Part shown: piece after piece, positions 31,341 to 53,880 of the stretch
How the letters are laid out: each line of letters opens with the position of its first letter
How positions within the stretch are numbered: position 1 is the first letter of the stretch
Origin: Promethearchaeia archaeon
GTDB taxonomy: Archaea; Asgardarchaeota; Lokiarchaeia; Sigyniarchaeales; SOKP01
Length of the DNA stretch: 64,000 nt
Assembly: GCA_046497275.1 (NCBI GenBank)
Contig: JAWOFX010000054.1
Location: 3,880-67,879 of the forward strand
Reading direction: 5' to 3'
Position numbers and translations under genes: made by a program
Notes under the pieces: generated by a model
The model's input: only the letters and a program-made list of their open reading frames with translations
The model's database searches: none
What the model was told of the DNA's origin: nothing

Positions 31341-32780
31341 ATGAATACTATATTAATTTATCCACAGTTGGAATTTTCAAAAGCTCAAATACCCGCCCCA
31401 CCGTATTCTATTTTATTTATCGCAGATTATTTGAATAAAAGACATATAAATGTGAAGATTTTTGACCTTAGATTTGACAAAAATTTAGATGTTTTAAATG
31501 AAATATCCCGTAACGAATTGGAATATATAGGGATTTCAGTTATGACTGGACCACAAATAAAATATGCGTTAAGAATTTCAGAATTAATAAAAAAGAAATT
31601 TGACAAGATAAAAATTGTATGGGGTGGAATGCATCCAACAATAAGACCTAAACAAACCCTTAAGCATCCATTAATAGACTTAGTTGTCCGGGGAGAGGGA
31701 GAAAAAACATATTTTGAGCTAGTTTCCGGAAGAGAATTAGAGAAAATTGATGGATTGTCTTTTAAAAGAGGAAATAAAATAATTCATAATAAAGAAAGAA
31801 TCTTAATGAGTGATTCGGAAATCAATGAGTTAAGTATTCCTTGGGAACTAATGAAACCAAAATATTACATTAATAATCAAAACTTTAATCTTATCACTAG
31901 TAGAGGTTGTCCTTATCAATGTGCGTTTTGCTATAATAGTATGGCTAAGAATAGATGGAGAGGGTGGACTGTAAATAAATGTATACATGAATTCAATAAG
32001 GTTTTAAATTATGATGTTAAAAAAATTACTTTTTATGATGATAATTTCTTTGCAAATCCAAAAAGAATTAGCGGGATATTCAATTATTTAAAAGAACATG
32101 ACATCATTTGGAAGGCAGAAATTAGAGTCGATCGTTTAGATCTTCCTTTAGCAGAAGCTGCAAAAAAGGCAGGCTGCCGACAATTATTTTTTGGTGCAGA
32201 ATCTGGATCTGAAAGGCTATTAAAATTAATTATGAAAAATATAACCATTCAAGATATAATTAAGAGTGCTAAAATAACTAAAAAGGTCGGATTGGTGGCA
32301 GATTATAGTTGGATGGTTGGAATTCCAGGAGAAAAACAAATTGATAGAAAAAAAACAATTTCTTTGATTAAGAAAATTAAGAAAATTAATTCAGAATGTG
32401 AATTCTCTATAAAAATCCTTTATCCATATCCGAAAACCTTAATTTTTCAAGATGCTGTTAAACATGGTTTTAAGCCACCTGTTAATCTTATTGAATGGTC
32501 AAATGTGAGAAGGGAGCGGGCTCCAGATTATTTAGAAAACGGAAATAACCTTGAAATGATCTCATTAATAAGTGCAATTGTGGGAAGAAAAGTATTTGAA
32601 AAAAGTAACTTCCCAATTTTAAAAATATTGAAATTTTACGCCGATTTCAGATGGAAATATGAATTTTTTGATGTTGGTATTGAAAACTTTTTGTTCAAAA
32701 TCTCTCGAGGGATGATTAATGAATATATGAATAGAAGAGATACCAAAGGATACGATCAATTCTCTCAAAAAATAATTTGA
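31341..32780 (+). CDS. B12-binding-domain radical SAM protein
   Basis: N-terminal Rossmann-like cobalamin-binding-type domain (YIGISVMTGPQ...IVWGGMHPT), then ITSRGCPYQCAFCYN (CxxxCxxC). Confidence 0.75.
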   Translation: MNTILIYPQLEFSKAQIPAPPYSILFIADYLNKRHINVKIFDLRFDKNLDVLNEISRNELEYIGISVMTGPQIKYALRISELIKKKFDKIKIVWGGMHPTIRPKQTLKHPLIDLVVRGEGEKTYFELVSGRELEKIDGLSFKRGNKIIHNKERILMSDSEINELSIPWELMKPKYYINNQNFNLITSRGCPYQCAFCYNSMAKNRWRGWTVNKCIHEFNKVLNYDVKKITFYDDNFFANPKRISGIFNYLKEHDIIWKAEIRVDRLDLPLAEAAKKAGCRQLFFGAESGSERLLKLIMKNITIQDIIKSAKITKKVGLVADYSWMVGIPGEKQIDRKKTISLIKKIKKINSECEFSIKILYPYPKTLIFQDAVKHGFKPPVNLIEWSNVRRERAPDYLENGNNLEMISLISAIVGRKVFEKSNFPILKILKFYADFRWKYEFFDVGIENFLFKISRGMINEYMNRRDTKGYDQFSQKII

Positions 32781-32971
32781 ATTAAGAGAATAATTTATTT
32801 TCAATTTAATTAATTATTTTAATCACAATATATGTGTTAAATAAAATAAAGAACTGTAGAAAAAAGTAAGAAACTTTTGAATTTGGAAAAGAAATATTTA
32901 TAATGGATGTTTAAATCAAAATATTAATTCAAATACCATTATATTATTTCAAAAAGTCATAAAAAACAATT

Positions 32972-33730
32972 ATGGTTAAAACGAATAGTAAAATAAAACG
33001 AATTGGGTTTTTTTTTTTAATGGTATTTCTTTTTCAAACAATTTTTATATTTTTTTCGTTGAATAATTTTCTAAATATTTTCTCTTCTCTTCAATATGCT
33101 TATATTTCTGGGAATTCCCTCTATATGCCTTTTATACCATATATTAATTTATTGTTATTTCTCCCTCCAAGATTTTTCCATCTTCACTTTACATTAGGTA
33201 ATTTAGTAGATATTCTCATATTAATCAGCCTTTCATCTGTTATAGATTCAATTTTCTACCATGGTATTTTAAAGAGATTTTTAGACGAAGAAATAGAGTT
33301 TGCCAAATATTCTTTATTGGACATCGATTTTGGATATAAAAATAAAAAAAATATTCAAGAACAAGGAATTTGGTTATTTCCCATGAATGATAAGATATTA
33401 GATAACAAAGGAAGAGAAAATACAATGGATATTGGAAAATTTTTGAACTTAAACGAGATGAAAAAATCTAGATCTTTTGCATTTAAATTCAAAAATGCGG
33501 TATATAGGAATAAAATTCGAAAATTTATATTCCTTCATAAAAATAACATTTGCTTACTTAGAAATGAAAAAAACATATTTCTTCATACTGGTTTAACCTA
33601 TTCCCATATAAAAACTATTTTTTCACTCCCTTTTGAAAATTTAAGATTTTCTCCAAAAATAAATTGTTTATTTTTAAAGAGCTTTCGAAAAACTTGGAGA
33701 ATGACAAGAAAATACAAACCAATTCAATGA
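32972..33730 (+). CDS. Phe/Asn/Lys-rich membrane-associated hypothetical protein; paralogue of 50713..51504
   Basis: A 252-codon open frame in extremely AT-rich DNA, which is unlikely by chance. N-terminal TM segments. Three blocks collinear with 50713 (SVIDSIFYHGILKRFLDEEIEF / IIESSIFFYIWEACMEDLDFY; IFSLPFEN / IFNSLPFN). Confidence 0.4.
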   Translation: MVKTNSKIKRIGFFFLMVFLFQTIFIFFSLNNFLNIFSSLQYAYISGNSLYMPFIPYINLLLFLPPRFFHLHFTLGNLVDILILISLSSVIDSIFYHGILKRFLDEEIEFAKYSLLDIDFGYKNKKNIQEQGIWLFPMNDKILDNKGRENTMDIGKFLNLNEMKKSRSFAFKFKNAVYRNKIRKFIFLHKNNICLLRNEKNIFLHTGLTYSHIKTIFSLPFENLRFSPKINCLFLKSFRKTWRMTRKYKPIQ

Positions 33731-33784
33731 ATTAAATATAATTTTTAAAATTAAATAAAAAATAATTAAAAGAGGTTATATAAA

Positions 33785-35149
33785 ATGGATTGGACTGATG
33801 AAATAGAAAATCTGTTTCAGAAAATAATGAATTTAACTCCCGAAGATTTTCGTGCTTCAATAGCGCCAATGTGGCATGATGCTGCCGAAAAAACTGCAAG
33901 ATTAAGAAATTCGGGATTTGTAAGCGAAGATGATCTGTTAACTGCATTATTTGATATCACCCCGGAAGCATTCCAACCCGCAGTAGTGAAGGATTTAACT
34001 GAAATCGGTATAGATACTGATCGTTATATTAAGTTGTCTGAAATAAGAAAAACATATGCCAGAACATGGAATGAAATCAGTGGGGCATTTAAACCAGGAG
34101 TTTACCATTTTACAATGTACATTACAGATCGTTGTAATCAAAATTGTTTACATTGCGCAGCTTCCGTAACGGAAAATAGAGAAGAATTATCAATACAAAA
34201 ATGGATTCAAATTATAGAAAATATAGAACAAACTCTTAGAAAACGAGGTAGAAATGGCTGTTATATTTGGTTCGGTGGAGAACCAACTGTACGGAAGGAC
34301 TTGAAAGATTTAATCGAATATTGTGGAGAAAAGGGATATTATCAAGCAGTTGCAACGAATGGAATCCTATTTGATGAGAAATTAGCAAAATTATGTGCTA
34401 AAGTTAAAATGAGTCATGTCTTTATCAGTTTAGACAGTACAAAACCCGAACGGGCTGCAAAAATAAGAGGTCACCCTAAAGCTTATGAATCTGCTATTAA
34501 AGCGATAAAATTAGCTAATGAATATGGATTGTTTACTATTGGAAATGCCACAATTCAAAAAGAAAATTTTGATGAATTAGAAGAGATACAAAATTTATAT
34601 GATTCTTTAGGAGTTATTCCATATTTTAGAGCAGTTATTAAGAAAAGGAGTGCAGATAAAAATTGGGAAGAGATCGGACTTGATTATGATCAATTTCGAG
34701 AGTTTTACAATTTTAAATATAACAATGTCGTTGATGCGATTCGAAGTGGAAAAGCATCGAGTATAAACAAATTTTATACTTGGGATATGGTCCCTTTTAT
34801 GGAAATTCCTAAAAATGATGAAGAAAGAGCCTCTCTAGAATGGGGAGTTGGTTGTCAAGCATGCAGATCGATTTCAGGAATTGATATCAATGGCGATGTT
34901 TTTCCATGTGATTATCCGTCTGAATTAATCTTAGGCAATGTTCTTGAACAGAGCTTTGATGAAATTATGGAATCTGAGATTTTTAAAGCCATTCGAGACA
35001 GGAAAATTAAAGGTAAGTGTGCTGATTGCCATCATCTGGAATTATGTGGTGGTGGTTGCAGAATTCATGCGGAAAATGAAACTGGTGACTTTCTCGCTGC
35101 TAGCCCTTATTGTTGGCATATAATGGATCATAAACACAATGAAGAGTGA
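33785..35149 (+). CDS. Radical SAM/SPASM enzyme with N-terminal PCP_red-like helical module
   Basis: aa 1-84 are the shared module (MDWTDEIENLFQKIMNLTPEDFR...). Then ITDRCNQNCLHCA (CxxxCxxC) and GGEPT. C-terminal SPASM Cys set CQAC...NGDVFPC...GKCADCHHLELCGGGC...C. GAGGT RBS. Confidence 0.8.
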   Translation: MDWTDEIENLFQKIMNLTPEDFRASIAPMWHDAAEKTARLRNSGFVSEDDLLTALFDITPEAFQPAVVKDLTEIGIDTDRYIKLSEIRKTYARTWNEISGAFKPGVYHFTMYITDRCNQNCLHCAASVTENREELSIQKWIQIIENIEQTLRKRGRNGCYIWFGGEPTVRKDLKDLIEYCGEKGYYQAVATNGILFDEKLAKLCAKVKMSHVFISLDSTKPERAAKIRGHPKAYESAIKAIKLANEYGLFTIGNATIQKENFDELEEIQNLYDSLGVIPYFRAVIKKRSADKNWEEIGLDYDQFREFYNFKYNNVVDAIRSGKASSINKFYTWDMVPFMEIPKNDEERASLEWGVGCQACRSISGIDINGDVFPCDYPSELILGNVLEQSFDEIMESEIFKAIRDRKIKGKCADCHHLELCGGGCRIHAENETGDFLAASPYCWHIMDHKHNEE

Positions 35150-35160
35150 TGTGAAAAATT

Positions 35161-36585
35161 ATGGAATGGGATGAAAATACAAAAAAAATATTTCAGCAGA
35201 TTGTCAAACAAATACCAGGTGGTTTTAGATCCGCTGTTGAACCACAAATAGTGAAAGCAGCAACACAGAGATGTTTAGATAGAAATGAATCGTATATTAA
35301 TGAATCAGATGTTGTTTTAGGAATTTTTGATATTATTCCTGAAGCATTTAAAGCAATGATGGTTGAAGATCTGACCGCTTTAGGAATAGATGTCCAAAGA
35401 TATATAGAATTGAAGGAAATTAAAGATCGCCTTAAGCTTTCTTGGGATAAATTAGAAAAAGCATTTCATCCTGGGGTTATACATTTTGCAATGTACATAA
35501 CAGATAAATGTAATATGAAATGTATTCACTGTGCTGCAGATGATTATATACCCAGAAAAGAATTACCTAAAGAAAGATGGTTTGAGATTATTGAAAATTT
35601 GGAATCTGGTTTAAGAAATCATGGTCGAAGAGGTTGCTACATTTGGTTTGGAGGAGAACCTACTTTACGCAAAGATATAGGGGAGATCATGGAATTTTGT
35701 AATAAAAATGATTATTTTCATGCTATTATCACTAATGGAGTAGAATTCAATGAAGATTTTGCTAAAAAGTGTAAAGATAATAATATGAGCCATGTTTTTG
35801 TAAGTTTTGACAGTGCTGATCCTGAAAAAAATGATTATATACGTGGTTTTAATAATTCTCTTCCATATGCTAAAAGAGCAATAAAAAATTGTTTAAAATA
35901 TGGACTTTTTGTCTGTTCATCGATTACTGTGATGAAGCAAAATATAAATGAACTTGATGATCTTGATTCCTTATCTTTAAAATGGGGAGCACAACCATTT
36001 TTTAGACCAGTAGTTAAACAAAATCGGGCTGCAGAATATTGGGATGAAATCGGACTTAACAAAGAAGAATATCATAAACTATACAATTATAAATATGAGA
36101 GAGCCATCAAAAAAATAAGAAATGCAGAGGCAGGCAGTCTTCCGGCTTACGAAATTTACGAGATGATGCCTTTTATGGAATGTCCGAAAAATGACAAGGA
36201 ATTAAGTGCAATTGAATGGGGTGTGGGTTGCTTAGCATGCAGAACGATGATGGGGGTAGGTATCGATGGCACTATTTTTCCTGCTGGATATCCAACTAAA
36301 TTAACTCTTGGAAATGCTTTGAAGGATGATTTTGACGACGTTTTAGATTCACAACTTTATAAAGATATAAGAGATAGAAAAAAGATCAAGGGAAAATGTG
36401 CAAAGTGCCATCATTTAGATTTATGTGGAGGAGGTTGCCGAGTCACTGCTGAATATATCACAGGCGACTTTTTTGCTTCTTTTCCTTTCTGCTGGCATGA
36501 AAATGATCATGAACATAAGAATTGCTTGAATCATAAGCAAAGAGTTGAAACAGAAAATATTCTATTAAAAAAACCTATTGAATAG
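35161..36585 (+). CDS. Radical SAM/SPASM enzyme with N-terminal PCP_red-like module (tandem paralogue of 33785..35149)
   Basis: Collinear with the upstream gene. ITDKCNMKCIHCA. SPASM region CLAC...DGTIFPA...GKCAKCHHLDLCGGGC, where the GxxxxC cysteine is Ala (codon 36283-36285). Confidence 0.8.
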   Translation: MEWDENTKKIFQQIVKQIPGGFRSAVEPQIVKAATQRCLDRNESYINESDVVLGIFDIIPEAFKAMMVEDLTALGIDVQRYIELKEIKDRLKLSWDKLEKAFHPGVIHFAMYITDKCNMKCIHCAADDYIPRKELPKERWFEIIENLESGLRNHGRRGCYIWFGGEPTLRKDIGEIMEFCNKNDYFHAIITNGVEFNEDFAKKCKDNNMSHVFVSFDSADPEKNDYIRGFNNSLPYAKRAIKNCLKYGLFVCSSITVMKQNINELDDLDSLSLKWGAQPFFRPVVKQNRAAEYWDEIGLNKEEYHKLYNYKYERAIKKIRNAEAGSLPAYEIYEMMPFMECPKNDKELSAIEWGVGCLACRTMMGVGIDGTIFPAGYPTKLTLGNALKDDFDDVLDSQLYKDIRDRKKIKGKCAKCHHLDLCGGGCRVTAEYITGDFFASFPFCWHENDHEHKNCLNHKQRVETENILLKKPIE

Positions 36586-36615
36586 TCTCATAAAATTTTA
36601 AAAAAGGGATAAAAA

Positions 36616-38031
36616 ATGCGAGTTTTATTGATTTCAGTAAGTAGAGAAATAGTCCATGTAATGACACCACCATTAGGTGAGTCTTATATTGCTTCCTATC
36701 TAATAAATAAGGGTCATCAAGTTAAAATATTAGACTTAACCCATAGTAATGATTCAGAGAATGATATCTCAAAAGCGATAAACAATTTTAACCCACAACT
36801 AATAGGAGTTTCTATTCGAAATATTGATTCAACAACATATCCTGGTAATTTGTTTTTTTACTTACCAGCAAGAAAAATTATTAAATATATTAAACATATC
36901 GCAGAACCAGATGTGCCGATAATACTAGGAGGAGCAGGATTTTCTATTTTTTCAGAAGAAATCCTAAAGGATTTAAATCATTCCCTTGGAGTAATTGGTG
37001 ATGGGGAACAAGTTTTTGCTGAAATCTGCAAAAGGGTAGAGAAACAAGAGGATTTAAGAAAAATAGAAAAAGGAATTTGCTATTTAGATAAAAATGGAGA
37101 ATATCATCAAAAAGCCCCTTGGCGAGTAAACAATCTCGATAAATTACCAATTCCGGCAAGACATTTAATCGATAATCAAGCATATTTAATCGATCCTTTA
37201 GATGTGAATGGAGAAATATGGGGTAATATTCAAACTAAGCGTGGTTGTCCAAAGAATTGTATTTATTGTAGTTATAAATATATAGAAGGTTCTAATGTGC
37301 GATATAGAAGTCCAAAAAGTGTTGCCGAAGAAATAGAAGTCCTAGTTAATAATTATGGAGTAAAAAACATATTTTTCGTGGACAGTGTGTTTAATTTAAG
37401 CTATGATCACCTAAAAAATACTTGCCAAAAAATAATAAAAAAAAATCTTGATTTAAATTGGGGCGCAAATTATGTACCTGATAAAAAATTTATCAATCTA
37501 TTACCTCTTATGAAAGAGAGTGGTGCAATTCATCTAGCAACTGGTATAGAATCATTATCAGGAGAAATGCTCAAGAGTATGAAAAAAGGAAGGAAAAGTG
37601 AAGATGCTATAATCACATCTAAAAGATGTTTTGAACTTGAAATAGAGCAATTAATCCATATAATAATAGGGGGTCCGAATGAAACACTTAAGACTGTTCG
37701 TGCTTCTTTAGATTTATTAGAAACAATTAAGAATTATCAAAATAAAATTTGGCAAGGTGATGGAGATGTTTTATTATTTATAGGAATTAGGATATACCCA
37801 CATACAGAAATCCAGGTTATAGCTGAAGAGGAAGGAATAATAGTTGAAGATGAGAATTTACTACGGCCGAAGTTCTATATATCTCCAAAAATTAAAGAAA
37901 TTGAACTTTTTCAAGTCGTTAGGAAATATTGTGCTAGAAATCCCAGATGGATGGCTCCAGGATTAGGAATAAACAATCCAGATGGTTTTGCAGAATTAAG
38001 TAATATGCAGTTTGCAAAATATCAAACTTGA
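36616..38031 (+). CDS. B12-binding-domain radical SAM protein
   Basis: MRVLLIS...LIGVSIRN...IILGGAGFS N-terminal domain, then QTKRGCPKNCIYCSY. Confidence 0.75.
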   Translation: MRVLLISVSREIVHVMTPPLGESYIASYLINKGHQVKILDLTHSNDSENDISKAINNFNPQLIGVSIRNIDSTTYPGNLFFYLPARKIIKYIKHIAEPDVPIILGGAGFSIFSEEILKDLNHSLGVIGDGEQVFAEICKRVEKQEDLRKIEKGICYLDKNGEYHQKAPWRVNNLDKLPIPARHLIDNQAYLIDPLDVNGEIWGNIQTKRGCPKNCIYCSYKYIEGSNVRYRSPKSVAEEIEVLVNNYGVKNIFFVDSVFNLSYDHLKNTCQKIIKKNLDLNWGANYVPDKKFINLLPLMKESGAIHLATGIESLSGEMLKSMKKGRKSEDAIITSKRCFELEIEQLIHIIIGGPNETLKTVRASLDLLETIKNYQNKIWQGDGDVLLFIGIRIYPHTEIQVIAEEEGIIVEDENLLRPKFYISPKIKEIELFQVVRKYCARNPRWMAPGLGINNPDGFAELSNMQFAKYQT

Positions 38032-38077
38032 ATCTTTTTAAATTAGAATTATATAATAATAAAAAAAAATTAGAAAA

Positions 38078-39250
38078 ATGAATTGGGAACAAAAAATTAA
38101 AGAACTTTATAATAAAGTTGTAGAAAGAATACCAGAATCTGTCCGACCAATTATAAAGCCAGCATTAGCTGAAGCTGCTAAAGAAAAATGTACTGAACGT
38201 AATGGAACAGAGATATCTGAGGTCGATTTAGTTGTCGCCTTATTTGAAGTCACTCCTCCGGCATTTCAACCGACGATGATTGAAGATCTAAAAAAGCTTG
38301 GTGTAGATTATGATAGGTATTTAGCAAAAGTGAAAGGAGATTTTAAATGTAATAATGATCTGGAGATTATGGTTGAGGATACTCTAAAATTATGCAAAAT
38401 AGCTGGAATTAATGGAAATAAACCAGCTATTTGGAAGGTTATAAATGTTTATGAACCCTTTTTTAGAGGTTCTTCCATCTCTATAAGAACAACTACGAAA
38501 CCAATCGAAAAGAGAGATGTATCGGTAAGATATGTAGAACTTATGCATCCACACAAACCAGATGCGTATTCGACTGCTATTAATGAAGGACTTATTGAAA
38601 ATAATGGCCATATCATTCATGACGCTATTAAAGAGGTAATAAATAAATTTCAGATTATGGGATATGGAATCGATCTAGATGCAAGAAAAGGATTATCAAA
38701 AATATGGCCTTTTGTGGTACCAGGTTCTTTGGATCCAATATTTGACTTGGAAAATTATCCTGAAAGTGTAAAAAACTACAAAGCATATTTTGATAAACAT
38801 AAATTAAACATTTTTAGTCTTTTTGCTTTTGATTTCTGTCATTACACTACAAATATTTATATCATGCTTAAAAATCCTTCAGCTAATTCATTAGATGTAT
38901 CTAAAAAATTAGTAAGTGATTTAGGATTTAGTTTACCTTCGGATAAGGTTATGGAAAGTTGCGCTAAAGCAGCACATTTGAATTATACATTTAATTGGGA
39001 TGATGAAAAAGTACAAAGGCTTTGTTTTGGAGTTACATGTCAAAAATCTCAAGAAGTCCCTACAGATCTTCATCCTCTCATCAATAAATTTATCGAAAAA
39101 TCTCCATTTCAAAGCGAAATTCATAAATTTATATATGGAGTGACCTTTACTCCGGATGATATTTATTATAAAATCGAAAATGATTACAACGGTACGATGG
39201 TTGATTTTTTGTTGATGGGAGCTCAAGCAGGGATTAATTCATACAAATGA
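38078..39250 (+). CDS. ABBA-type aromatic prenyltransferase (NphB/CloQ/Orf2-like) fused to N-terminal PCP_red-like module
   Basis: aa 1-84 are the shared module. The remainder aligns, from my memory of NphB, in its C-terminal half: YTFNWDDEKVQRLCFGV vs TLNWETGKIDRLCFAV, and FIYGVTFTPDDIYYKIENDY vs LVYGLTLSPKEEYYKLGAYY. Confidence 0.6.
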   Translation: MNWEQKIKELYNKVVERIPESVRPIIKPALAEAAKEKCTERNGTEISEVDLVVALFEVTPPAFQPTMIEDLKKLGVDYDRYLAKVKGDFKCNNDLEIMVEDTLKLCKIAGINGNKPAIWKVINVYEPFFRGSSISIRTTTKPIEKRDVSVRYVELMHPHKPDAYSTAINEGLIENNGHIIHDAIKEVINKFQIMGYGIDLDARKGLSKIWPFVVPGSLDPIFDLENYPESVKNYKAYFDKHKLNIFSLFAFDFCHYTTNIYIMLKNPSANSLDVSKKLVSDLGFSLPSDKVMESCAKAAHLNYTFNWDDEKVQRLCFGVTCQKSQEVPTDLHPLINKFIEKSPFQSEIHKFIYGVTFTPDDIYYKIENDYNGTMVDFLLMGAQAGINSYK

Positions 39251-39285
39251 GAATTTTATATTACATTTAAATAAGAGGTGATTAA

Positions 39286-40431: not shown

Positions 40432-40436
40432 AAAAA

Positions 40437-46133: not shown

Positions 46134-47276
46134 ATGATAAAAATATCATTTAAACCGAAAAACCAAAAGAATAATGTAATTCCAATTTTGGAATATTATG
46201 GTTATGTTATAGCCAAATTAGTTGATTCATTTTCTCTGTTTTCGACTTTTATTGATAAATTGGAAACATTATATATAAGAAAAACAATTGGTACTATAGA
46301 GATTAATAGCCCAATCTTTATAACTGGAATTCCAAGATCTGGCACAACTATCACTCTTGAAATGTTAGCCAAACATCCTGAAGTAGCTTCTCATAAATAT
46401 AAGCATCTTCTCATGCCTTATATTCCATATTGGTTTAGTAACGCAATAAATAAATTGAAAATTTCTTTAGAACCAACTGAAAGAATACATCAAGATAGAA
46501 TATTCATTAATCAAGATAGTCCGGAAGCTGTAGAAGAGATTTTTTGGCAAAGATTCTTTGAAAATGTTCATAATGAAAGTGATTCAAATATTTTAGACAA
46601 TAATACTAAGAATGAAGAATTCGAAAATTTTTATAAGAATCATATTAAAAAGTTGCTAATAAGTCAAGAATCTTCAAGATATATCGCAAAAAATAATTAT
46701 AATTTAACAAGATTGGAATATTTAATCAAAATTTTTCCAGATGTTAAATTTGTAATACTAATACGTAATCCTATAAATCAAATTGCTTCAATTATTAAAC
46801 AACAAAAATCATTCATTAAAATGGAATCAATCTCACCTCTATTATCAGAGTGGAATAATATTCTTGGCCATCATGAATTTGGAAATCATTCTAGTTTAAT
46901 TAATTTGAATGACTATGAATTAGTTAAAAAAATTAGAAGTTTATTAAAGAATAAAAATTCATATGTAAAAGGATGGGGTTATTATTGGACTTCTCTTTAT
47001 GATCATGTCATGAAAATTATAAAAATTAATAAAAAAGTCAAAAAAGCTAGTTTAATTGTACGATATGAAGATTTATGCGAATCCTCATCATCAACAATCG
47101 ATAAAATCCTTGATCACACCAACCTACCACATGAGCAGTTTGATCATACGAAAAAGTATTATGTTAGATGTCTAGAGAAACCTTCTTATTATAAACCACA
47201 TTTTTCGGATATAGAAATTGAAAATATATTAAAAATCACAAGACCAACAGCGAAAAAATATGGATATCAATTATAA
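46134..47276 (+). CDS. Sulfotransferase family protein (PAPS-dependent type)
   Basis: 5'-PSB-like loop ITGIPRSGTTITLEML and 3'-PB-like RNPINQIAS. Confidence 0.65.
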   Translation: MIKISFKPKNQKNNVIPILEYYGYVIAKLVDSFSLFSTFIDKLETLYIRKTIGTIEINSPIFITGIPRSGTTITLEMLAKHPEVASHKYKHLLMPYIPYWFSNAINKLKISLEPTERIHQDRIFINQDSPEAVEEIFWQRFFENVHNESDSNILDNNTKNEEFENFYKNHIKKLLISQESSRYIAKNNYNLTRLEYLIKIFPDVKFVILIRNPINQIASIIKQQKSFIKMESISPLLSEWNNILGHHEFGNHSSLINLNDYELVKKIRSLLKNKNSYVKGWGYYWTSLYDHVMKIIKINKKVKKASLIVRYEDLCESSSSTIDKILDHTNLPHEQFDHTKKYYVRCLEKPSYYKPHFSDIEIENILKITRPTAKKYGYQL

Positions 47277-47457
47277 TATTCTCTTCGATTTTAATTTCTA
47301 TAATGGCTTATTCCAAGTCTTAAATTATTAGAAATAGTATCAATTCGTATAAAAAGCTATAGCATTTTAATAATTCTCCCAAATTAAAGAGCTTAAAATT
47401 TTTATGTATGTAATAATATTTTAAAATATTTAGTTAATAATCTAAAGGAAACTGAAT

Positions 47458-48921
47458 TTGAAAAAATATAATATACTATTTATCCACCCCCCAATCAATT
47501 CCAGCTCGATTCAAGATGAAAGTCCTCATAAAAGACGCGGAAATTATATATTTATTCCCATGGGCGTTTTTGCTATCGCTGACCTATTGGAAAGAGAGGG
47601 TTTTAGTGTCAAAATAATAAATTTTCCTTTAGAGAAATTCCTTAATTCTAAATGGAATTTAAAAGATTTTTTAAAAAACCTTGATTTCGATATTTGCGCA
47701 ATTGATCTACATTGGATCCACAATTCTTACGGTGCTTTATATATTTCTAAGGTAGTTAAAGAAATTGATAAAAATATCAAAGTAATTTTTGGAGGTTATA
47801 GTGCTTCATATTTCCATAAACAGATTTTGAAATATTATCAAACAGTAGATGGAATTATTAGAGGAGATGGTGAAATTCCATTTTTAGAATATACTAGATG
47901 CCATCTAAGAAACAAAAATTTTGATAAAGTTCCAAATTTGACTTATAGAAATTCATCAGGCATGATAAAAGTTAATCCAATTTCCTATATTGCAAAATCT
48001 TTAGAAGATTTAAATTTTTCTAATATATCTTTAATGCACAATGCGGAGTCATATTTAAATAATAGCAGAAAAATTATGGGAATATCTTATAATGTTTCTG
48101 TTGGAAGAGGTTGTCCATTTAATTGTCCGTTTTGTGCAGGAGGAAAAAAGGCTCAAGAAAAATATTCTTGTCGAACAGAGGTAATTCTAAGGAATCCACG
48201 AAGAGTTGTTGAAGATATTTTATTTATTTATCATAATTATAATATTGATAATTTCTTTTTTGGACATGGAACTTATCCAAAAACCCTTAAGTACTGGGAG
48301 AAATTGTTTTCTATTATCAGAGAAGAAAATATCGATATTTCTGCTGATTTAGAAATTTGGAGATTACCATTTCCTAAAAAAATGGTTCAGAGTTTTTATG
48401 AGACATTCAATAATAAAAAATCTTCGTTAAGTATCTCCCCAAGAACAATCTCTTCTTCTGTCCAGAAGAAAATTGCGAAATTAGATGATCCAACATTTAT
48501 TTTCAGAAAAAGTGAAATTTTCAAGCTTATTGAAGACACAATTCAATACCGAATCCCATTAAGAATATGGTTGACAATTGGATTTCCTTTTCAAAATAGA
48601 AGAGAAATTATAAAAGATATTATGTTTGCTATAGAATGTGTATTAAAGTATGGAAAATCGAAAAAAAATCCTATAGCAATTATGAGTGAACCGTACTTTA
48701 TATTCCCAGGCTCCCCCGTATTTGAGGATCCTGAAAAATATGGAATTAAATTAAAATTAACTAATTTTCCTGAAATTGTAAATGCATTTAAGAATTCTAA
48801 AATTTCATTTTTTTATAACTTGACAAATTATGATAATAAATATTTTTCAAGTAATTTTATAAGAAAATTGAATCTGCTATTTTTCTTAATTGTAGCACCA
48901 ATGTTCCTTACAAGTGGTTAA
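47458..48921 (+). CDS. B12-binding-domain radical SAM protein
   Basis: TTG start. N-terminal Rossmann-like domain (ICAIDLHW...VIFGGYSAS), then VSVGRGCPFNCPFCAG. Confidence 0.7.
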   Translation: MKKYNILFIHPPINSSSIQDESPHKRRGNYIFIPMGVFAIADLLEREGFSVKIINFPLEKFLNSKWNLKDFLKNLDFDICAIDLHWIHNSYGALYISKVVKEIDKNIKVIFGGYSASYFHKQILKYYQTVDGIIRGDGEIPFLEYTRCHLRNKNFDKVPNLTYRNSSGMIKVNPISYIAKSLEDLNFSNISLMHNAESYLNNSRKIMGISYNVSVGRGCPFNCPFCAGGKKAQEKYSCRTEVILRNPRRVVEDILFIYHNYNIDNFFFGHGTYPKTLKYWEKLFSIIREENIDISADLEIWRLPFPKKMVQSFYETFNNKKSSLSISPRTISSSVQKKIAKLDDPTFIFRKSEIFKLIEDTIQYRIPLRIWLTIGFPFQNRREIIKDIMFAIECVLKYGKSKKNPIAIMSEPYFIFPGSPVFEDPEKYGIKLKLTNFPEIVNAFKNSKISFFYNLTNYDNKYFSSNFIRKLNLLFFLIVAPMFLTSG

Positions 48922-49091
48922 AAATAAGTTATTCTAGATTGATTTTTTTAATTTTATTCAAATTAATCAAAATCAAAATATCTTCCAAGAAGTTTAAATT
49001 TATTCTAAAATTTTAAATTAAAATCTATTTTTAGATTATTAAAAGATTTTTTGATCTTAATTACATTTAAATATATCATAAATGAATTTCA

Positions 49092-50492
49092 ATGAAACTA
49101 ACAGTAGCAACTAATTGGGATTACAATTTAATTGATGAATTAGTAAAATATCCAGTTTCAGATTTGTATGGAGTTGCACAAGAAAGCCCGGTTGGTGGAG
49201 GACGTCCTTCATTTCTATTAACATCAATCTCTAAAAAAAAAATAGAAAAATATATCAAAGAGGTTCATAATAAGGGTATGAAATTTTCATATCTTCTTAA
49301 TGCACCTTGCATGGGCAATATGGAATATAATAAAGAATATCATAAACTATTAATCAAATATATCCAATGGATAAGCGATATCGAGGTAGATAGTGTAATT
49401 GTTACCATTCCGTTTTTGATTCAAGTCATCAAAAAACAATTTCCAGAATTAAAAATACGCGTTTCTACAATTGCAACCGTTAATAGTATTAATCGAGCAA
49501 AATTTTATGAGATGCTTGGAGCCGATGAGATCACTCCTGATGTCATGATAAATCGAGATTTTAAAACATTAAAAAATATCCAAAAGGCAACTAATTGTAA
49601 AATCGTGTTATTACTAACTGATGGTTGTTTATACCAATGCCCTTTTAGATTATATCATTATAATCTTTTAGGTCACGCATCTCAAACAAATAACGAGATT
49701 GGGCAAAACTATATTGATACTTGCATTTTAAACTGTAGCATTATTAAATATTCTGATCCTGCAGAAGTTTTAAAAGCAAGGTGGATCCGTCCTGAAGATC
49801 TTTCTCATTATATGGAAATCGGAATAGATCATTTTAAAATCGCAGGAAGGCGTATGTCTACACCATGGATTCTTAGAGCAGTTAAAGCTTTCTCATCTCA
49901 AAAATATAATGGGAATCTAGTAGATATTATTCAAGGATTTTCAATGTCATTTGGTGGTTTAGAACAGAAAGATCCCAATTTAAGCTTGAGAAAAACCATA
50001 GGAGAAGAGTCTAAATCCAAATTATATATTGACAATACAAAATTAGATGGCTTTATAGATTTTTTTAAAAACCAAAATTGTATATCTATGTGTGATCAAT
50101 GCGATTATTGTGAAAAATGGGCAAATAAAGCAGTAAGATTAGATCCTGAAAAGTCTTCTAATTATTTAAAATCTCTTAAAGCATATCTTGATGATATCAT
50201 AACAAGCAGAGAATTTGGACTAAAAACTTCAGAAAGCAAAGAAGAAATAAAAAAGGGCATGAACTGGAATTCTAAAACAGAACAACTTTTCAATGAATTA
50301 ATCAATTTGACTCCATCCCAATTTAGGTCTATGGCAAAAGTAGCTATATCCTCGGTTGCTGAAGAGAATGCTAGAAAGAGAAAATCTAATGAAGTTATGA
50401 ATCAAGATATGATAAAAGCATTCATAGAGGGTACTCCAGGACCTTTTCAAGATGATATGAAGAAGGGACTTAAAAAATTTAATCTCATATAA
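49092..50492 (+). CDS. U32-like Fe-S TIM-barrel protein with Cys4 motif and C-terminal PCP_red-like module
   Basis: MKLTVATNWDYNLIDEL...GGGRPS...VIVTIPFLIQVIKKQFPELKIRVSTIATVNS...LLLTDGCLYQCPFRLYHYN. CISMCDQCDYC motif. Shared module at 50259-50489 (MNWNSKTEQLFNELINLTPSQFR...). Confidence 0.6.
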   Translation: MKLTVATNWDYNLIDELVKYPVSDLYGVAQESPVGGGRPSFLLTSISKKKIEKYIKEVHNKGMKFSYLLNAPCMGNMEYNKEYHKLLIKYIQWISDIEVDSVIVTIPFLIQVIKKQFPELKIRVSTIATVNSINRAKFYEMLGADEITPDVMINRDFKTLKNIQKATNCKIVLLLTDGCLYQCPFRLYHYNLLGHASQTNNEIGQNYIDTCILNCSIIKYSDPAEVLKARWIRPEDLSHYMEIGIDHFKIAGRRMSTPWILRAVKAFSSQKYNGNLVDIIQGFSMSFGGLEQKDPNLSLRKTIGEESKSKLYIDNTKLDGFIDFFKNQNCISMCDQCDYCEKWANKAVRLDPEKSSNYLKSLKAYLDDIITSREFGLKTSESKEEIKKGMNWNSKTEQLFNELINLTPSQFRSMAKVAISSVAEENARKRKSNEVMNQDMIKAFIEGTPGPFQDDMKKGLKKFNLI

Positions 50493-50712: not shown

Positions 50713-51504
50713 ATGTTTAAGTTCAATTTTAGGAGAATTCAATCATCTAATTTCCTTGGATTTAAATTGATTTTTACATTAATACTGATTAGCATTTTTG
50801 TTCCTTTATCTCTAGTAATTTTCTATTTTTTTGATGCTATTAATTATAAGGCATTAATTTTTGATTTTAGTAACGAATTCAAATCTCTTAATTATTTAAA
50901 TTTCTTTAAAAGTGTTCTACTTATTAATCCCTTTAAGAACACGGAGATTTTTTTTATATTTATAACAATATTGCTAAATTTAATTTTTGTGTGCATTGTT
51001 ATAGCAATAATAGAATCAAGCATTTTTTTTTACATTTGGGAAGCATGTATGGAGGATTTAGATTTTTACGTCCCATATAATTCCAAAGAAGAACATGAAA
51101 TGCCTTATGACCCATTTTTAAATCAAGAAGAAAATAATATGAAAAAAATATCTGAATCAAACAACTTTTTCGGTATAATACCATTAAAAAATTTTAATAA
51201 GAACCGAAATCATAATCTATTTTATTATGAAAATCATCTAATTAAAAAAACAAAAATTTTATTAACAAAACCCAAACAACTCCAAGATTCTTTAAGGAAA
51301 ATATCAATAAAAAGAAAAAAAAGATTTTCTTATAATTCAAATTCAAACTTTCTAATCCTTATTTTCTATATTTTTAATTCCTTACCTTTTAATTACCCAA
51401 TAAAATCTCATTTTAAAGAATCTTCATTTAATAAAGAGGGAAATATCTTCAATCTAAAATTTAGGATAAATTATGATTTCAGATTTGAATTTTTAAATAT
51501 ATGA
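50713..51504 (+). CDS. Phe/Asn/Lys-rich membrane-associated hypothetical protein; paralogue of 32972..33730
   Basis: 263 aa. Same composition and architecture, and collinear blocks with 32972..33730. Confidence 0.4.
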   Translation: MFKFNFRRIQSSNFLGFKLIFTLILISIFVPLSLVIFYFFDAINYKALIFDFSNEFKSLNYLNFFKSVLLINPFKNTEIFFIFITILLNLIFVCIVIAIIESSIFFYIWEACMEDLDFYVPYNSKEEHEMPYDPFLNQEENNMKKISESNNFFGIIPLKNFNKNRNHNLFYYENHLIKKTKILLTKPKQLQDSLRKISIKRKKRFSYNSNSNFLILIFYIFNSLPFNYPIKSHFKESSFNKEGNIFNLKFRINYDFRFEFLNI

Positions 51505-51529
51505 AAAAAAAAATAATTGAAAAAAATAG

Positions 51530-52480
51530 TTGAATAAAAAAATGTTTGCAATAATATTTGAATTGATTTTTCCATTGGCACTAATTGGAATCTTGATAAT
51601 TATATTCATAAAGGGAATCTTTACTAAAGCTGAGGAACGAGATTATATGACATTCGATGAATTTATTAAAGATTGGATCAGAGATCATGGTGTAGAGCAT
51701 AAGCTTGAACCATACTTTGAATCAATGAAGAAAAATCCTGCGGGAAAATTATATATGCCGATAACATATAAGTGGGGAAAATTTTTCAGTAAACTGGGAG
51801 TATCAGCAAATGAGGTCTCTATTATTAATTTGACATTATCTTTTCTTGGCTTTTATGGTGTAATTATGGCTGGGAGAGGACATCTATTAAATTATCTGAC
51901 TCGGCAACCTGCTTTCGGATCTTGGTTTATTGTTCTTGGTATTATATTTTTAGTTGCGGGAATAATAGATGGAGCAGATGGCGCAATCGCTAGATTAGAA
52001 AATACCAAGTCGGCGTCTGGTGCTTGGTTTGATAATAATATTGATAGAATCAGCGATATATTGATGTTGGTATGCTTGATACCTGGAGGACTCTCAATAA
52101 TACCAGAATACAACTATGATTTTAGATGGCTTGTGTGGACAAATGTATTATTAATCTTTATTTATGAATATATGAGAGCCAGACATCAAGGTTTAGGATT
52201 ACATGCATTACAACCAACCATAGGCGAGAGAATTTCTAGGATAATAATAATTTCTACGTTTTTCTTTATTTATGGAATCTCTAGTTTTTCGGTTTTCATA
52301 ACGTACTTAATAAACCCTTCCTTAACTTCTCTCTGGTCGGTTTCTCATAGTGGAATTATAAACTGGGTTATGATAATACATCAAATTGCTCTGCTTTTAG
52401 TAATGATTATCTCAGTGATTCGCACTATAATATTCGTATGGAAAAACTTAAAAAAAATGGACGAGAGTGAGAATAATTAG
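51530..52480 (+). CDS. CDP-alcohol phosphatidyltransferase family protein
   Basis: TTG start. Exact family signature DG-x2-AR-x8-G-x3-D-x3-D in IIDGADGAIARLENTKSASGAWFDNNIDRISD. Polytopic membrane protein. Confidence 0.85.
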   Translation: MNKKMFAIIFELIFPLALIGILIIIFIKGIFTKAEERDYMTFDEFIKDWIRDHGVEHKLEPYFESMKKNPAGKLYMPITYKWGKFFSKLGVSANEVSIINLTLSFLGFYGVIMAGRGHLLNYLTRQPAFGSWFIVLGIIFLVAGIIDGADGAIARLENTKSASGAWFDNNIDRISDILMLVCLIPGGLSIIPEYNYDFRWLVWTNVLLIFIYEYMRARHQGLGLHALQPTIGERISRIIIISTFFFIYGISSFSVFITYLINPSLTSLWSVSHSGIINWVMIIHQIALLLVMIISVIRTIIFVWKNLKKMDESENN

Positions 52481-52578
52481 AAGAAAAGAAGGGTTATTAA
52501 GAAAATTATTTAATTATTTTATTTTTTTGATTTTTTTTAAAACTTTAAATAAATTAATAATTAGAGGTTAGTCTGAAA

Positions 52579-53880
52579 TTGTTATTTAAATTTGAAGATT
52601 ATTTACCTGACGAATTAAAAGAAAAATATTTTGATTTTTCTCCACGTAATTATTCGGACGAGGAATTCTATAATGCTTTATTAACTCAAATTAAGAAATC
52701 ATTTGAAAATTGTAAATTATATAGAGATGTTATTTGTAAAAGATTTGACTACTCAATCCCAGATGAAATTAATGCCGATGACTTAGAAAAAATTCCTTAT
52801 ATCAATACAAATTTGTTTAAAAAAATAAATAAAAACGTTTTGAACCTTATGAAAGTCCCTCCCGAGGAGATTGCATTATTTTCTTGTTCTTCCTCTACAT
52901 CTGGAGATCCCTCAATAATGCCGCGCACTTTAGAAGATTTTGATCAGATTCAATATAATTCTATCAAAGTATTTACTGAATTTTTTAGATGGAAAAGCTT
53001 AACGAAGGATGGGAAAAAACCCCTCGTTTTTAATTTTGCCCCGAGTCGGCATATGATGTCATTTATGGCTAAAAAGAATGCAAAAGGATTTAAATATCTT
53101 GAAAAAACACGATATTTTTCAGCTTGTATGAATAAACCTTGGGAATATCTTGGACATGAAGAATATTTAGTGAAAGTGAAAATATTGAAAACATTATGGG
53201 CTATCATCTCTACATTTTCAGCTAGAGGAGGATTCGTGTTAGATATATCAAAAATGTTGAAAATGATTGAGAAAGTCTTAGATAAAGGATCTTATAAAAA
53301 TATGGAAATAAGTACAATTATTTTCGGAGGAAGTCCCTTATTGATGAATAATATGTTCGAGAACCGATTGTTAAAAGAGAATAAATTCTACAATCTTCAA
53401 GATATTGGATTTGCAGGTTGTGGTGGAGGAGGTTGGGATGGTGTAAAAGGAGAGGCAAAGATGGATTCAGTAAATAAATCTAAATTTATTGGATATTTCG
53501 AAAAAGTATTCAATATGAAACATGAAAATATCGCAGATATTTATGCATTTACAGAATCACCAACGCTATTCGGTGCTCATTGGTCTGAAAAATATCAAGA
53601 TTTCTTATATCATTGTCCTAACACATCTCGAATCATCGTGAGAGATATAAAATCATTACAACCTGTTAATATTGGACAAGAGGGGTTACTTGAAGTTATT
53701 ACTCCTTATGGAGTGAATGGAGCTGTAAATCAAGCAATGCTCGTGGATGATATAGTAGAAATAGTATCCGCTGATAAATGTTCAGAATGTGGCTATCAAG
53801 GTGCTACTTTTAGAGTTTTAGGAAGGTTAAAAAACTTAAAAGGTGAGAGTTGTTCTTCTTTGATAGATTGGCTACATTAA
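52579..53880 (+). CDS. LuxE-like acyl-protein synthetase / adenylate-forming enzyme
   Basis: TTG start with GAGGT RBS. CSSSSTSGDPS, GCGGGGWDG, IYAFTESP, FRVLGRLKNLKGESCS. Collinear with 44186..45445. Confidence 0.55.
   Translation: MLFKFEDYLPDELKEKYFDFSPRNYSDEEFYNALLTQIKKSFENCKLYRDVICKRFDYSIPDEINADDLEKIPYINTNLFKKINKNVLNLMKVPPEEIALFSCSSSTSGDPSIMPRTLEDFDQIQYNSIKVFTEFFRWKSLTKDGKKPLVFNFAPSRHMMSFMAKKNAKGFKYLEKTRYFSACMNKPWEYLGHEEYLVKVKILKTLWAIISTFSARGGFVLDISKMLKMIEKVLDKGSYKNMEISTIIFGGSPLLMNNMFENRLLKENKFYNLQDIGFAGCGGGGWDGVKGEAKMDSVNKSKFIGYFEKVFNMKHENIADIYAFTESPTLFGAHWSEKYQDFLYHCPNTSRIIVRDIKSLQPVNIGQEGLLEVITPYGVNGAVNQAMLVDDIVEIVSADKCSECGYQGATFRVLGRLKNLKGESCSSLIDWLH

Follow-up and report, generated by a model that had tools for sequence, protein, structure and literature searches.

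A gene cluster conserved across Asgard archaea combines an ABBA prenyltransferase, U32 proteins, SCP2 domains and radical SAM enzymes in a putative anaerobic lipid or cofactor pathway

Gene clusters built around ABBA-type prenyltransferases (NphB/Orf2, CloQ, EpzP/PpzP, AmbP1/AmbP3) are known from the meroterpenoid biosynthesis of aerobic actinomycetes and cyanobacteria, where they represent lineage-restricted secondary metabolism, and the futalosine (Mqn) pathway provides an anaerobe-compatible quinone route in which two radical S-adenosylmethionine (SAM) enzymes, MqnE and MqnC, act before or after prenylation. No known organisms are more closely related to the eukaryotic host lineage than the Asgard archaea, and knowledge of the lipids and electron carriers of their membranes is still poor. 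The hydroxylation of aromatic or heteroaromatic rings without O2 has been tied to U32 proteins, with prephenate as the oxygen donor of UbiU/UbiV; of the twelve U32 subfamilies most are uncharacterised, and direct in vitro hydroxylase activity has been shown for no U32 protein (PMC10990095). A 2026 review of lipid-modifying radical SAM enzymes makes no mention of Asgard archaea, prenyltransferases or SCP2 (PMC13459092). In this study, a cluster combining an ABBA prenyltransferase, U32 proteins, an SCP2 domain and radical SAM (rSAM) enzymes was analysed in a 64,000-nucleotide stretch of contig JAWOFX010000054.1 (GCA_046497275.1) from a Promethearchaeia archaeon, hereafter the window, whose G+C content (GC) is approximately 28%. 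An initial annotation made from the sequence alone had described positions 31341-53880 as one biosynthetic cluster of about 22.5 kb.

Genes were called from the listing of open reading frames (ORFs) together with Pfam and NCBIfam scans of the window translations. The central series on the forward strand begins with a 252-amino-acid (aa) membrane protein without Pfam or NCBIfam match (mem252, 32972-33730), which is followed by two tandem rSAM/SPASM enzymes with Pfam Radical_SAM and SPASM domains (SPASM-A, 33785-35149, CNQNCLHC; SPASM-B, 35161-36585, CNMKCIHC), a B12-binding rSAM enzyme (B12b, 36616-38031, CPKNCIYC), the ABBA aromatic prenyltransferase (38078-39250; PTase_Orf2, 163 bits, E 1e-47), a divergent 381-aa U32-like protein (U32x, 39286-40431), and a U32 protein fused to an SCP2-like lipid-binding domain (40437-42479). 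Further downstream on the same strand lie a second B12-binding rSAM enzyme (B12c, 47458-48921, CPFNCPFC) and another U32 protein (U32c, 49092-50492). A helical domain of about 90 aa, which we named XDOM, is shared by SPASM-A, SPASM-B, the prenyltransferase, the U32-SCP2 fusion (hence U32-XDOM-SCP2) and U32c. The enzyme families named in the initial annotation, that is, three B12-binding rSAM proteins with exactly the motifs CPYQCAFC, CPKNCIYC and CPFNCPFC, the two tandem rSAM/SPASM proteins, the ABBA-type prenyltransferase, three U32-like proteins of which one carries SCP2, two LuxE-like enzymes, a sulfotransferase and a CDP-alcohol phosphatidyltransferase, were all recovered by Pfam, apart from U32x, which was placed by BLAST against its U32 paralogues (E 1e-28; Pfam U32 E 0.056). 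The tight spacing and GAGGT signals that it had reported were likewise borne out: intergenic gaps are 5-54 bp throughout 33730-42479, and AGAGGT stands upstream of the four genes at 33785, 39286, 40437 and 52579. It had overlooked the transposase, XDOM, three ORFs without family and the extension of the neighbourhood to about 57.6 kb, all of which are described below.

Related loci, collected by context look-ups of prenyltransferase homologues and by scanning the GTDB species genomes, which gave 47 loci, were mapped against the window proteins; the per-gene counts given here refer to 32 Asgard loci, many of which are cut by contig ends. Synteny, which the initial annotation had proposed checking, was evident, since the core gene set and its order recur in approximately 30 Asgard metagenome-assembled genomes (MAGs) of the Loki/Promethearchaeota, Thor, Hermod, Hod and Odin groups. 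The typical order runs from an occasional sulfotransferase further upstream through B12c, mem252, SPASM-A, SPASM-B and B12b to the prenyltransferase, after which come either U32x and U32-XDOM-SCP2 or a stand-alone SCP2 protein of about 130 aa, then U32c and, in some loci, zinc-ribbon transmembrane (TM) proteins and a group of LuxE2, a membrane GT2 protein and the CDP-alcohol transferase. SPASM-A and SPASM-B were present as a pair in 26/32 loci, U32c in 23 (median 72% identity), B12b in 21 (median 69%), mem252 in 19, directly upstream of SPASM-A and with five more found later, B12c in 17 (median 57%) and U32x in 14. SCP2 occurred stand-alone or fused to rSAM/SPASM or prenyltransferase in 19 Asgard loci and fused to U32 in 13. 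The head-group genes recur as well, less tightly than the core: the CDP-alcohol transferase was found in 11 loci (median 56% identity), LuxE2 in six (66-68%) and the sulfotransferase, upstream of the cluster, in three (51-54%), while a LuxE1 homologue was found in a single one. The tightly conserved core corresponds to 32972-42479 plus 47458-50492, and the insertion sequence (IS) transposase, LuxE1 and the ORFs at 45589-45906 and 50713-51504 are unconserved inserts. What had been annotated as one 22.5-kb cluster therefore contains a syntenic core but is not one unit, given the looser head-group module and the inserts. This is a real syntenic biosynthetic cluster and no chance run of genes, and it ranks among the most strongly conserved gene sets in the Asgard genomes that carry it.

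In most other genomes U32c directly follows U32-XDOM-SCP2, and B12c normally stands just upstream of mem252. The window copy is rearranged: its U32-XDOM-SCP2 and U32c genes are separated by the IS element, LuxE1, the sulfotransferase and B12c, the last of which has thus been relocated. In addition, several Loki genomes (loci L029, L030 and L044/L005) possess a second, paralogous core that is approximately 50% identical and runs in the order mem, SPASM, prenyltransferase, U32x, U32-SCP2, SPASM; in one case it adjoins a 559-aa HMG-CoA synthase.

The system is not Asgard-only, and reduced forms of it are found in a Thermoplasmata genome and in bacteria. A complete Thermoplasmata MAG encodes a SPASM enzyme, a prenyltransferase-XDOM protein, a SPASM-SCP2 fusion and an XDOM-SPASM enzyme, and bacterial MAGs (Pseudobacteroides, other Clostridia/Bacillota, Deferrimicrobium, Aminicenantes, Omnitrophota, Anaerolineae, Thermoanaerobaculia and Polyangiaceae) carry the prenyltransferase and XDOM-SPASM either alone or together with U32 genes. 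The clostridial Pseudobacteroides locus also holds a HemN-like rSAM enzyme, three U32-XDOM genes, a NUDIX hydrolase and a DAHP synthase. XDOM-SPASM homologues approximately 50% identical to those of the window were found in the cultured bacteria Myxococcus stipitatus and Bradyrhizobium diazoefficiens, the M. stipitatus locus lying at approximately 6.10-6.12 Mb of CP102770.1. The M. stipitatus and Bradyrhizobium-type versions share P450s, a CrtO/CrtI-family flavin adenine dinucleotide (FAD) enzyme, HemN-like rSAMs, a UbiG-like methyltransferase, a PEP-utilising enzyme and a phosphatase; HpaB (303 bits on HpaB-1), an Amidohydro_2 protein and SCP2 occur only in the M. stipitatus version, and FA_hydroxylase, ERG2/Sigma1R and ERG4/ERG24 family genes only on the Bradyrhizobium-type contig (L057, 12877-15701), where these sterol-type genes stand, in this one locus, between the SPASM/P450 genes and the prenyltransferase/FAD-enzyme genes. 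The tailoring set thus varies with oxygen, with P450s (and HpaB) in aerobes and U32 and B12-rSAM enzymes in anaerobes, while the core of prenyltransferase and XDOM-SPASM stays constant. Other neighbours recorded in three further loci (L039, L046 and L048) were ECF transporter parts, a cupin, a methyltransferase and a P450.

Gene fusions bind the same enzymes together. A prenyltransferase-rSAM/SPASM fusion (762 aa) and a U32-rSAM/SPASM fusion (857 aa) were found as neighbours alongside a U32-XDOM gene, so that the three enzyme classes are tied to one pathway; SPASM-SCP2 and SCP2-XDOM-prenyltransferase (536 aa) fusions were also found. These data bear on the simplest rival explanation, namely that unrelated housekeeping enzymes came together by chance. 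The window copy is indeed rearranged and holds an IS element, and LuxE1, 45589-45906 and 50713-51504 are not conserved with the cluster. Against this, the same order is kept in about 30 Asgard contigs of several phyla and in bacteria, fusions join the enzyme classes, a rare domain is common to five of the enzymes, and the family scans placed the ORFs in no unrelated housekeeping families. Based on the synteny and the fusions, chance co-localisation is effectively refuted, and we give it next to no credence.

The five XDOM copies are all encoded on the forward strand. They form aa 1-92 of SPASM-A (33785-34060; inter-paralogue BLAST, weak DUF2621 match and alignments), aa 1-92 of SPASM-B (35161-35436; DUF2621-like, E 3e-6, and BLAST), aa 1-90 of the prenyltransferase (38078-38347; AlphaFold2 (AF2) model), an internal segment, aa 423-514, of U32-XDOM-SCP2 (41703-41978; BLAST and a weak Pfam match) and the C-terminal part, aa 390-466, of U32c (50259-50489; DUF2621-like, E 8e-8, and BLAST). 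In BLAST comparisons the copies were 27-41% identical among themselves, with E values of 1e-6 to 1e-18. The AF2 model of the prenyltransferase copy (pLDDT 89.8) showed a five-helix bundle. Pfam returned weak matches to DUF2621 (best E 8e-8) and a single one to PCP_red (E 0.1); since these matches are weak, the resemblance was not accepted as homology to the protochlorophyllide reductase B subunit. A profile search with XDOM against PDB sequences yielded nothing below E 0.1 and no BchB/ChlB, and Foldseek against the PDB returned just histone-like noise (E >=0.2, root-mean-square deviation approximately 8 Å). XDOM is rare, with 230 clusters at E 1e-3 among 1.84 billion representatives, and it is mobile: it is C-terminal on the Thermoplasmata and Deferrimicrobium prenyltransferases, forms a stand-alone 90-aa gene adjoining the prenyltransferase in a Bacillota MAG, and in larger proteins is combined with SCP2 (in either order), with U32 and SCP2, with LuxC and rSAM/SPASM, or with an HpaB C-terminal domain; another of these proteins, of 1104 aa, carries two SCP2-like domains. 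A stand-alone subfamily of approximately 89 aa with the motif DAFFSETP...GIDYxKYGYPK is common in metagenomes.

Another uncharacterised set of anaerobic tools for hydrophobic substrates is found at locus L055 (GCA_040752695.1), which contains two aldehyde:ferredoxin oxidoreductases, cyclases, a cupin and an Amidohydro_2 protein together with four B12-rSAM genes, SCP2, a stand-alone XDOM/DUF2621 gene and a 1104-aa protein with PCP_red, two SCP2 and XDOM segments.

An accessory domain common to several tailoring enzymes resembles the logic of the recognition elements (RREs) of ribosomally synthesised and post-translationally modified peptides (RiPPs), and one may ask whether the cluster prenylates, cross-links and methylates a peptide that is encoded elsewhere or is too divergent to be seen, in which case XDOM would be a novel domain for the recognition of leader peptides. 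Cyanobactin pathways do employ ABBA prenyltransferases, rSAM/SPASM and B12-rSAM enzymes typically serve as RiPP maturases, and the weak NCBIfam matches included many RiPP families. On the other hand, no conserved small intergenic ORF was present in the window or in the 47 related loci, all apparently conserved small ORFs being shadows inside large genes, so that the absence of a precursor peptide noted in the initial annotation holds across the larger sample. XDOM is all-helical and not a winged helix, and no PqqD or RRE was found among its Foldseek or profile matches; SCP2 domains belong to the cluster itself and occur in fusions with XDOM; the 70-85% identity of the SPASM enzymes across phyla is unusual for RiPP maturases; and U32, DAHP synthase and HpaB are ill-suited to a peptide substrate. 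A RiPP is for these reasons quite improbable.

SPASM-A and SPASM-B, which are 47% identical to each other, possess the rSAM motif CX3CX2C and a complete C-terminal SPASM motif (CX9-15GX4C ... CX2CX5CX3C ... C), with CRSISGIDINGDVFPC and CADCHHLELCGGGC read in the translations; the Pfam SPASM scores were 45.7 and 27.3 bits. Between Loki, Thor, Hod, Hermod and Odin genomes they are 70-85% identical (median 73-74%), the SPASM-B orthologues in Thor, Hod and Loki genomes being 72-74% identical, while bacterial homologues of SPASM-A are 50-60% identical. Both fall below all named NCBIfam equivalog cut-offs: AhbD, AhbC and NirJ were the top matches, the best being AhbD (149 bits vs a cut-off of 500), and MftC (114 vs 265), PqqE (103 vs 381) and Tes (62 vs 450 bits) scored lower.

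The order of these matches would suit the modification of a tetrapyrrole or other cofactor, such as a haem- or corrinoid-like molecule bearing a prenyl group, as would the weak DUF2621 and PCP_red-type matches of XDOM and the HemN-like rSAM enzymes in the bacterial versions. The scores are nevertheless far under the family cut-offs, the XDOM profile finds no BchB/ChlB among solved structures, no tetrapyrrole biosynthesis genes were present in any locus examined, and SCP2 and ABBA prenyltransferases are not known in tetrapyrrole pathways, which makes such a product highly improbable.

The prenyltransferase is a bona fide member of the ABBA family, with 163 bits on Pfam PF11468 vs a cut-off of 22, and transfer of a prenyl group to an aromatic acceptor is predicted for it from the sequence. 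Its relatives in the PDB are AmbP1 (E 2.5e-34), AmbP3, 4ee6, NphB-type enzymes (1zb6) and CloQ, with 20-30% identity over the full length of the catalytic domain. The nearest solved relatives (AmbP1/3, EpzP, NphB and CloQ) prenylate indoles, phenazines, naphthalenes and 4-hydroxyphenylpyruvate. Approximately 130 homologues were found, almost all in Asgard MAGs and 57-76% identical over the full length, together with a second paralogue group approximately 50% identical; the window protein itself is 100% identical to that of a 'Promethearchaeati archaeon' MAG.

Meanwhile, the U32 domain scored above the Pfam gathering cut-off (22.4 bits) in U32-XDOM-SCP2 (36.8 bits) and U32c (54.4 bits), both of which match PDB 5d88. 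NCBIfam scores of the U32 proteins were low: U32c gave 33.7 bits on TrhP, and UbiU was matched at 17.8 bits vs a cut-off of 440. Alignments showed that all three U32 paralogue groups have at least four Cys residues that are >=90% conserved and could bind a 4Fe-4S cluster: C75, C186, C190, C230 and C345 in U32x, Cys176/186/190/222 in U32-XDOM-SCP2 and Cys169/179/183/211/215 in U32c. The two larger groups have an extra four-Cys motif of the form CX3CX2-3CX2C, namely CX3CX3CX2C in U32-XDOM-SCP2 and CX3CX2CX2C in U32c. In loci where both gene ends lie on the contig, U32x is always directly before U32-XDOM-SCP2, with gaps of 4-8 bp or overlaps; a Thor homologue of the fusion protein is 66% identical. 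The SCP2-like domain (aa 552-679, 42090-42473, forward strand) had a marginal Pfam score (PF02036, 23.3 vs 21.3 bits), which is backed by the SCP2 matches of stand-alone and fused orthologues. It is 70-73% identical to the stand-alone proteins of 128-133 aa that replace the U32 pair in other Asgard loci, and is elsewhere fused to rSAM/SPASM enzymes. Taken by analogy, U32x and U32-XDOM-SCP2 recall the UbiU-UbiV heterodimer with its SCP2 protein UbiT.

On the basis of the aromatic relatives of the prenyltransferase, the UbiU/V/T-like U32 pair with SCP2, the P450 and HpaB counterparts in aerobes and the DAHP synthase of one cluster, we tentatively favour the reading that the enzymes of the locus build a prenylated aromatic lipid by an O2-independent route, the molecule being most likely quinol/quinone-like; we put the chances of this reading a little short of even. 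The soluble ABBA prenyltransferase would attach an isoprenyl chain to an aromatic acceptor, probably a shikimate-derived one in view of the DAHP synthase, and hydrophobic intermediates would be carried by the SCP2-like domain or protein. As a shared module, XDOM may let the enzymes that use the SCP2 carrier or a common substrate dock there or hand the substrate on. The SPASM-A/B pair might perform radical C-H chemistry on the prenylated intermediate, for example oxidative decarboxylation or C-C ring closure; the Fe-S U32 proteins would hydroxylate the ring without O2, with prephenate as the possible oxygen donor by analogy with UbiU/V; and the B12-rSAM enzymes could C-methylate or otherwise remodel the ring or the chain. 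The CDP-alcohol transferase, LuxE2, GT2 protein, sulfotransferase and acyltransferase may add a polar group, or else make up a lipid head-group module next to the cluster. What results would be a prenylated lipid, either quinol/quinone-like or phenolic. The anaerobic prenylated, hydroxylated or methylated aromatic lipid suggested in the initial annotation accordingly gains comparative support, while the product itself is putative. A bolder version, rather doubtful in our estimation, is that the cluster of Asgard archaea and scattered anaerobic bacteria makes a new prenylated quinone-like electron carrier or ring-bearing membrane lipid entirely without O2, by a route unrelated to those with UbiA in which the soluble ABBA prenyltransferase works with XDOM-bearing rSAM/SPASM enzymes and U32 hydroxylases, that XDOM is a new SCP2-linked hand-off domain and that the aerobic versions, including the one with sterol-type genes, are the O2-dependent counterpart built on the same scaffold.

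Several observations weigh against the aromatic-lipid proposal. We infer both the substrate and the product of the cluster, and the role given to SPASM-A/B, the most conserved genes, is a guess. All of the rSAM enzymes score under the curated equivalog cut-offs. Pfam and NCBIfam scans detected no polyprenyl-diphosphate synthase or chorismate-utilising enzyme among the window ORFs, and those scanned from 15400 to 63184 include no UbiG/UbiE-type O- or C-methyltransferase and no UbiD/UbiX decarboxylase. XDOM is without detectable structural relative, and its hand-off role is suggested only by the fusions, since no recurrent neighbour genes accompany the stand-alone subfamily in the 80 metagenome loci sampled. 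Among the matches, none bore the name of a cultured Asgard strain. Finally, the resemblance of B12b and B12c to lipid-type B12-rSAM families, and that of the CDP-alcohol transferase to archaeal phospholipid synthases, would also fit a non-aromatic lipid.

The B12-rSAM enzymes are central to this last point. In Pfam, B12a (31341-32780, forward strand, CPYQCAFC), B12b and B12c each have a B12-binding domain in the N-terminal part, and the radical SAM domain behind it contains CX3CX2C. The best NCBIfam match of B12a was HpnJ (148 bits vs 578); B12b, whose nearest solved structure is TsrM, matched TIGR04072, 'lipid biosynthesis B12/rSAM' (287 bits vs 360), and BzaD (203 vs 450), and B12c matched TIGR04190 (229 bits vs 500). 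Association of B12a with the cluster is weak, because a relative of just about 30% identity stands near the cluster in only five other Asgard loci.

The CDP-alcohol transferase (51530-52480, forward strand; CDP-OH_P_transf, PF01066, 37.2 bits vs a gathering cut-off of 22) has an intact DGxxARx8Gx3Dx3D motif, the full pattern D(x)2DG(x)2AR(x)8G(x)3D(x)3D reading DGADGAIARLENTKSASGAWFDNNID in the translation. Its score as archaetidylinositol-phosphate synthase, 68 bits vs a cut-off of 180, places it below that equivalog. LuxE1 (44186-45445) and LuxE2 (52579-53880), both on the forward strand, scored 48.7 and 72 bits on Pfam PF04443 (cut-off 24.9) and are 38% identical to each other. LuxE2 homologues usually stand in the order CDP-alcohol transferase, membrane GT2, LuxE2, the middle gene being a 453-aa ORF (L013, 16661-18022, and seven other Asgard loci) that by eye looks like a membrane GT2-type glycosyltransferase; this ORF is absent from the window, where the CDP-alcohol transferase and LuxE2 are adjacent. 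Pfam and NCBIfam scans found no LuxC in the window. A metagenome locus (L053, 7420-12850) encodes LuxE, LuxC and a 949-aa LuxC-XDOM-rSAM/SPASM fusion; it links XDOM-SPASM to acyl activation and reduction and may explain the LuxE genes near the Asgard cluster.

The corresponding alternative is the tailoring of an isoprenoid membrane lipid without aromatic acceptor, in which archaeol- or GDGT (glycerol dialkyl glycerol tetraether)-type or polyprenyl lipids would be joined by radical C-C coupling, cyclised, methylated, hydroxylated and given a special head group. Radical SAM lipid chemistry is typical of archaea (PMC13459092). The 287 bits of B12b on a lipid biosynthesis family and the TIGR04190 match of B12c fit such a role, as do the weak matches of SPASM-A to the tetraether synthases Tes and GDGT-MAS, the SCP2 lipid-binding domains, the CDP-alcohol transferase related to archaetidylinositol-phosphate synthase, the membrane GT2, acyltransferase and sulfotransferase genes that recur nearby, and the HMG-CoA synthase adjoining a paralogous cluster. 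However, the core is also found in Clostridia, Myxococcus, a Bradyrhizobium-type contig and Thermoanaerobaculia, and to our knowledge these bacteria make no archaeal lipids. Moreover, the prenyltransferase belongs robustly to the aromatic ABBA family, the known U32 enzymes and the HpaB of the aerobic version hydroxylate aromatic rings, and a DAHP synthase lies inside one cluster. We therefore regard a non-aromatic membrane lipid as unlikely, and retain the prenylated aromatic lipid as the preferred product.

Among the remaining genes of the window, an ISH3/IS4-type DDE transposase (42589-43896, reverse strand; Pfam DDE_Tnp_1, NCBIfam ISH3), which had been overlooked when nearly all genes were called biosynthetic, interrupts the cluster and is no part of the pathway; the named families are otherwise all present. 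Its region has a GC of 0.357 vs approximately 0.28 in the surroundings, and the ends of the element showed neither convincing terminal inverted repeats nor a target duplication. The sulfotransferase (46134-47276, forward strand) was assigned by Pfam Sulfotransfer_3. Two hydrophobic ORFs without family match, a 105-aa TM protein (45589-45906, reverse strand) and a 263-aa protein (50713-51504, forward strand), have no homologue in the related loci and may be lineage-specific or not real genes. The 263-aa ORF was considered as a paralogue of the mem252 family and rejected, as it shows no similarity and has no homologue in other loci; mem252 itself has a conserved N-terminal part of approximately 130 aa (SGxSxFxP...GxLIDxxI...YHY) and a variable C-terminus in the alignment. 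In a scan for promoters and terminators the counts equalled the shuffled expectation, the consensus used being bacterial and not applicable to archaea.

Downstream of LuxE2, three tandem zinc-ribbon/TM paralogues (54020-56315, reverse strand; Pfam Zn_ribbon), 38-50% identical to one another, have an N-terminal ribbon followed by hydrophobic segments, and their homologues adjoin the cluster in seven Asgard loci. A membrane-anchored hexapeptide-repeat acyltransferase (56487-57578, reverse strand; Pfam Hexapep) has a 61% identical homologue in four Asgard loci. The recurrence of these genes indicates that the conserved neighbourhood extends past 53880, to approximately 57.6 kb. With the acyltransferase, a GT2 glycosyltransferase, a polysaccharide deacetylase and a nucleotidyltransferase occupy 56487-60158; this stretch, downstream of the cluster, has the look of a module for a glycan or a head group. 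Two further small zinc-ribbon paralogues, with the ribbon at the C-terminus, are encoded at 60301-61886 (forward strand). Directly upstream of the cluster, 25114-30441 encodes a DRTGG/AAA_26 protein, a 724-aa ADP-forming acyl-CoA synthetase, a cyclophilin and an MFS transporter, genes that do not stand beside the cluster in the other loci examined. An operon for hydantoinase A, hydantoinase B and acetone carboxylase gamma (17673-22556, forward strand) has a GC of 0.36-0.37 vs approximately 0.28 and may have been horizontally acquired.

The 70-85% identity of the SPASM enzymes across phyla speaks for strong selection, and the building blocks point to a lipid-soluble, ring-hydroxylated, methylated and prenylated molecule made without O2. 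Once identified, the product would prove to be either a quinone-like carrier of a new anaerobic class or a novel constituent of membranes, and the enzymology could give a function to U32 subfamilies, a partner reaction to ABBA prenyltransferases and a role to XDOM. The cultured bacteria with a homologous core, M. stipitatus and B. diazoefficiens, offer an immediate experimental handle.

No description of the cluster was found in open-access PMC and bioRxiv full text, nor any characterised pathway of such composition, in agreement with the initial annotation; a literature match for SCP2 in Asgard archaea proved to be an unrelated survey of lipid-transfer proteins. RiPP maturase sets with an RRE (PqqE/PqqD, MftC/MftB, sactipeptide and proteusin systems) likewise combine SPASM or B12-rSAM enzymes with a shared accessory domain, whereas the present cluster has no precursor peptide and its all-helical XDOM gave no RRE match. 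The futalosine pathway differs in that MqnE and MqnC are not SPASM enzymes, that MqnP is of the UbiA type and that U32, SCP2 and B12-rSAM proteins are missing, and no sequence relationship to it was found in this analysis. With the rSAM enzymes of archaeal lipid biosynthesis (Tes, GrsA/B, Gms and the B12-rSAM methylases) the cluster shares SPASM- and B12-type rSAM proteins, putatively isoprenoid substrates and a setting in anaerobic archaea; the similarity is remote (34-62 bits), however, those enzymes are without prenyltransferase, U32, SCP2 and XDOM partners, and the core described here is also bacterial.

The ABBA meroterpenoid clusters contain the same catalytic domain at 20-30% identity. 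In contrast to theirs, the prenyltransferase of the present cluster carries XDOM, is conserved at 57-76% identity across Asgard phyla and is coupled, and sometimes fused, to an rSAM/SPASM enzyme. The UbiT/UbiU/UbiV module of E. coli ubiquinone biosynthesis likewise comprises two adjacent U32 Fe-S proteins with conserved Cys residues and an SCP2 protein, and it acts on a prenylated aromatic lipid without O2 (PMC10990095). The U32 proteins of the cluster are very distant from these (TrhP 34 bits, UbiU 18 bits); one is fused to XDOM and SCP2, a third U32 protein is present, the prenyltransferase is a soluble ABBA enzyme and not UbiA, and the cluster has paired rSAM/SPASM as well as B12-rSAM enzymes in addition. 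The scanned window ORFs include no member of the UbiA, UbiD, UbiX, UbiE or UbiG families. The cluster is an uncharacterised lipid or cofactor cluster built from known enzyme superfamilies and one rare domain. By analogy, it would appear to work most like a UbiT/U/V module placed on an ABBA meroterpenoid pathway and joined by radical SAM tailoring of the archaeal style, while being a member of none of these systems.

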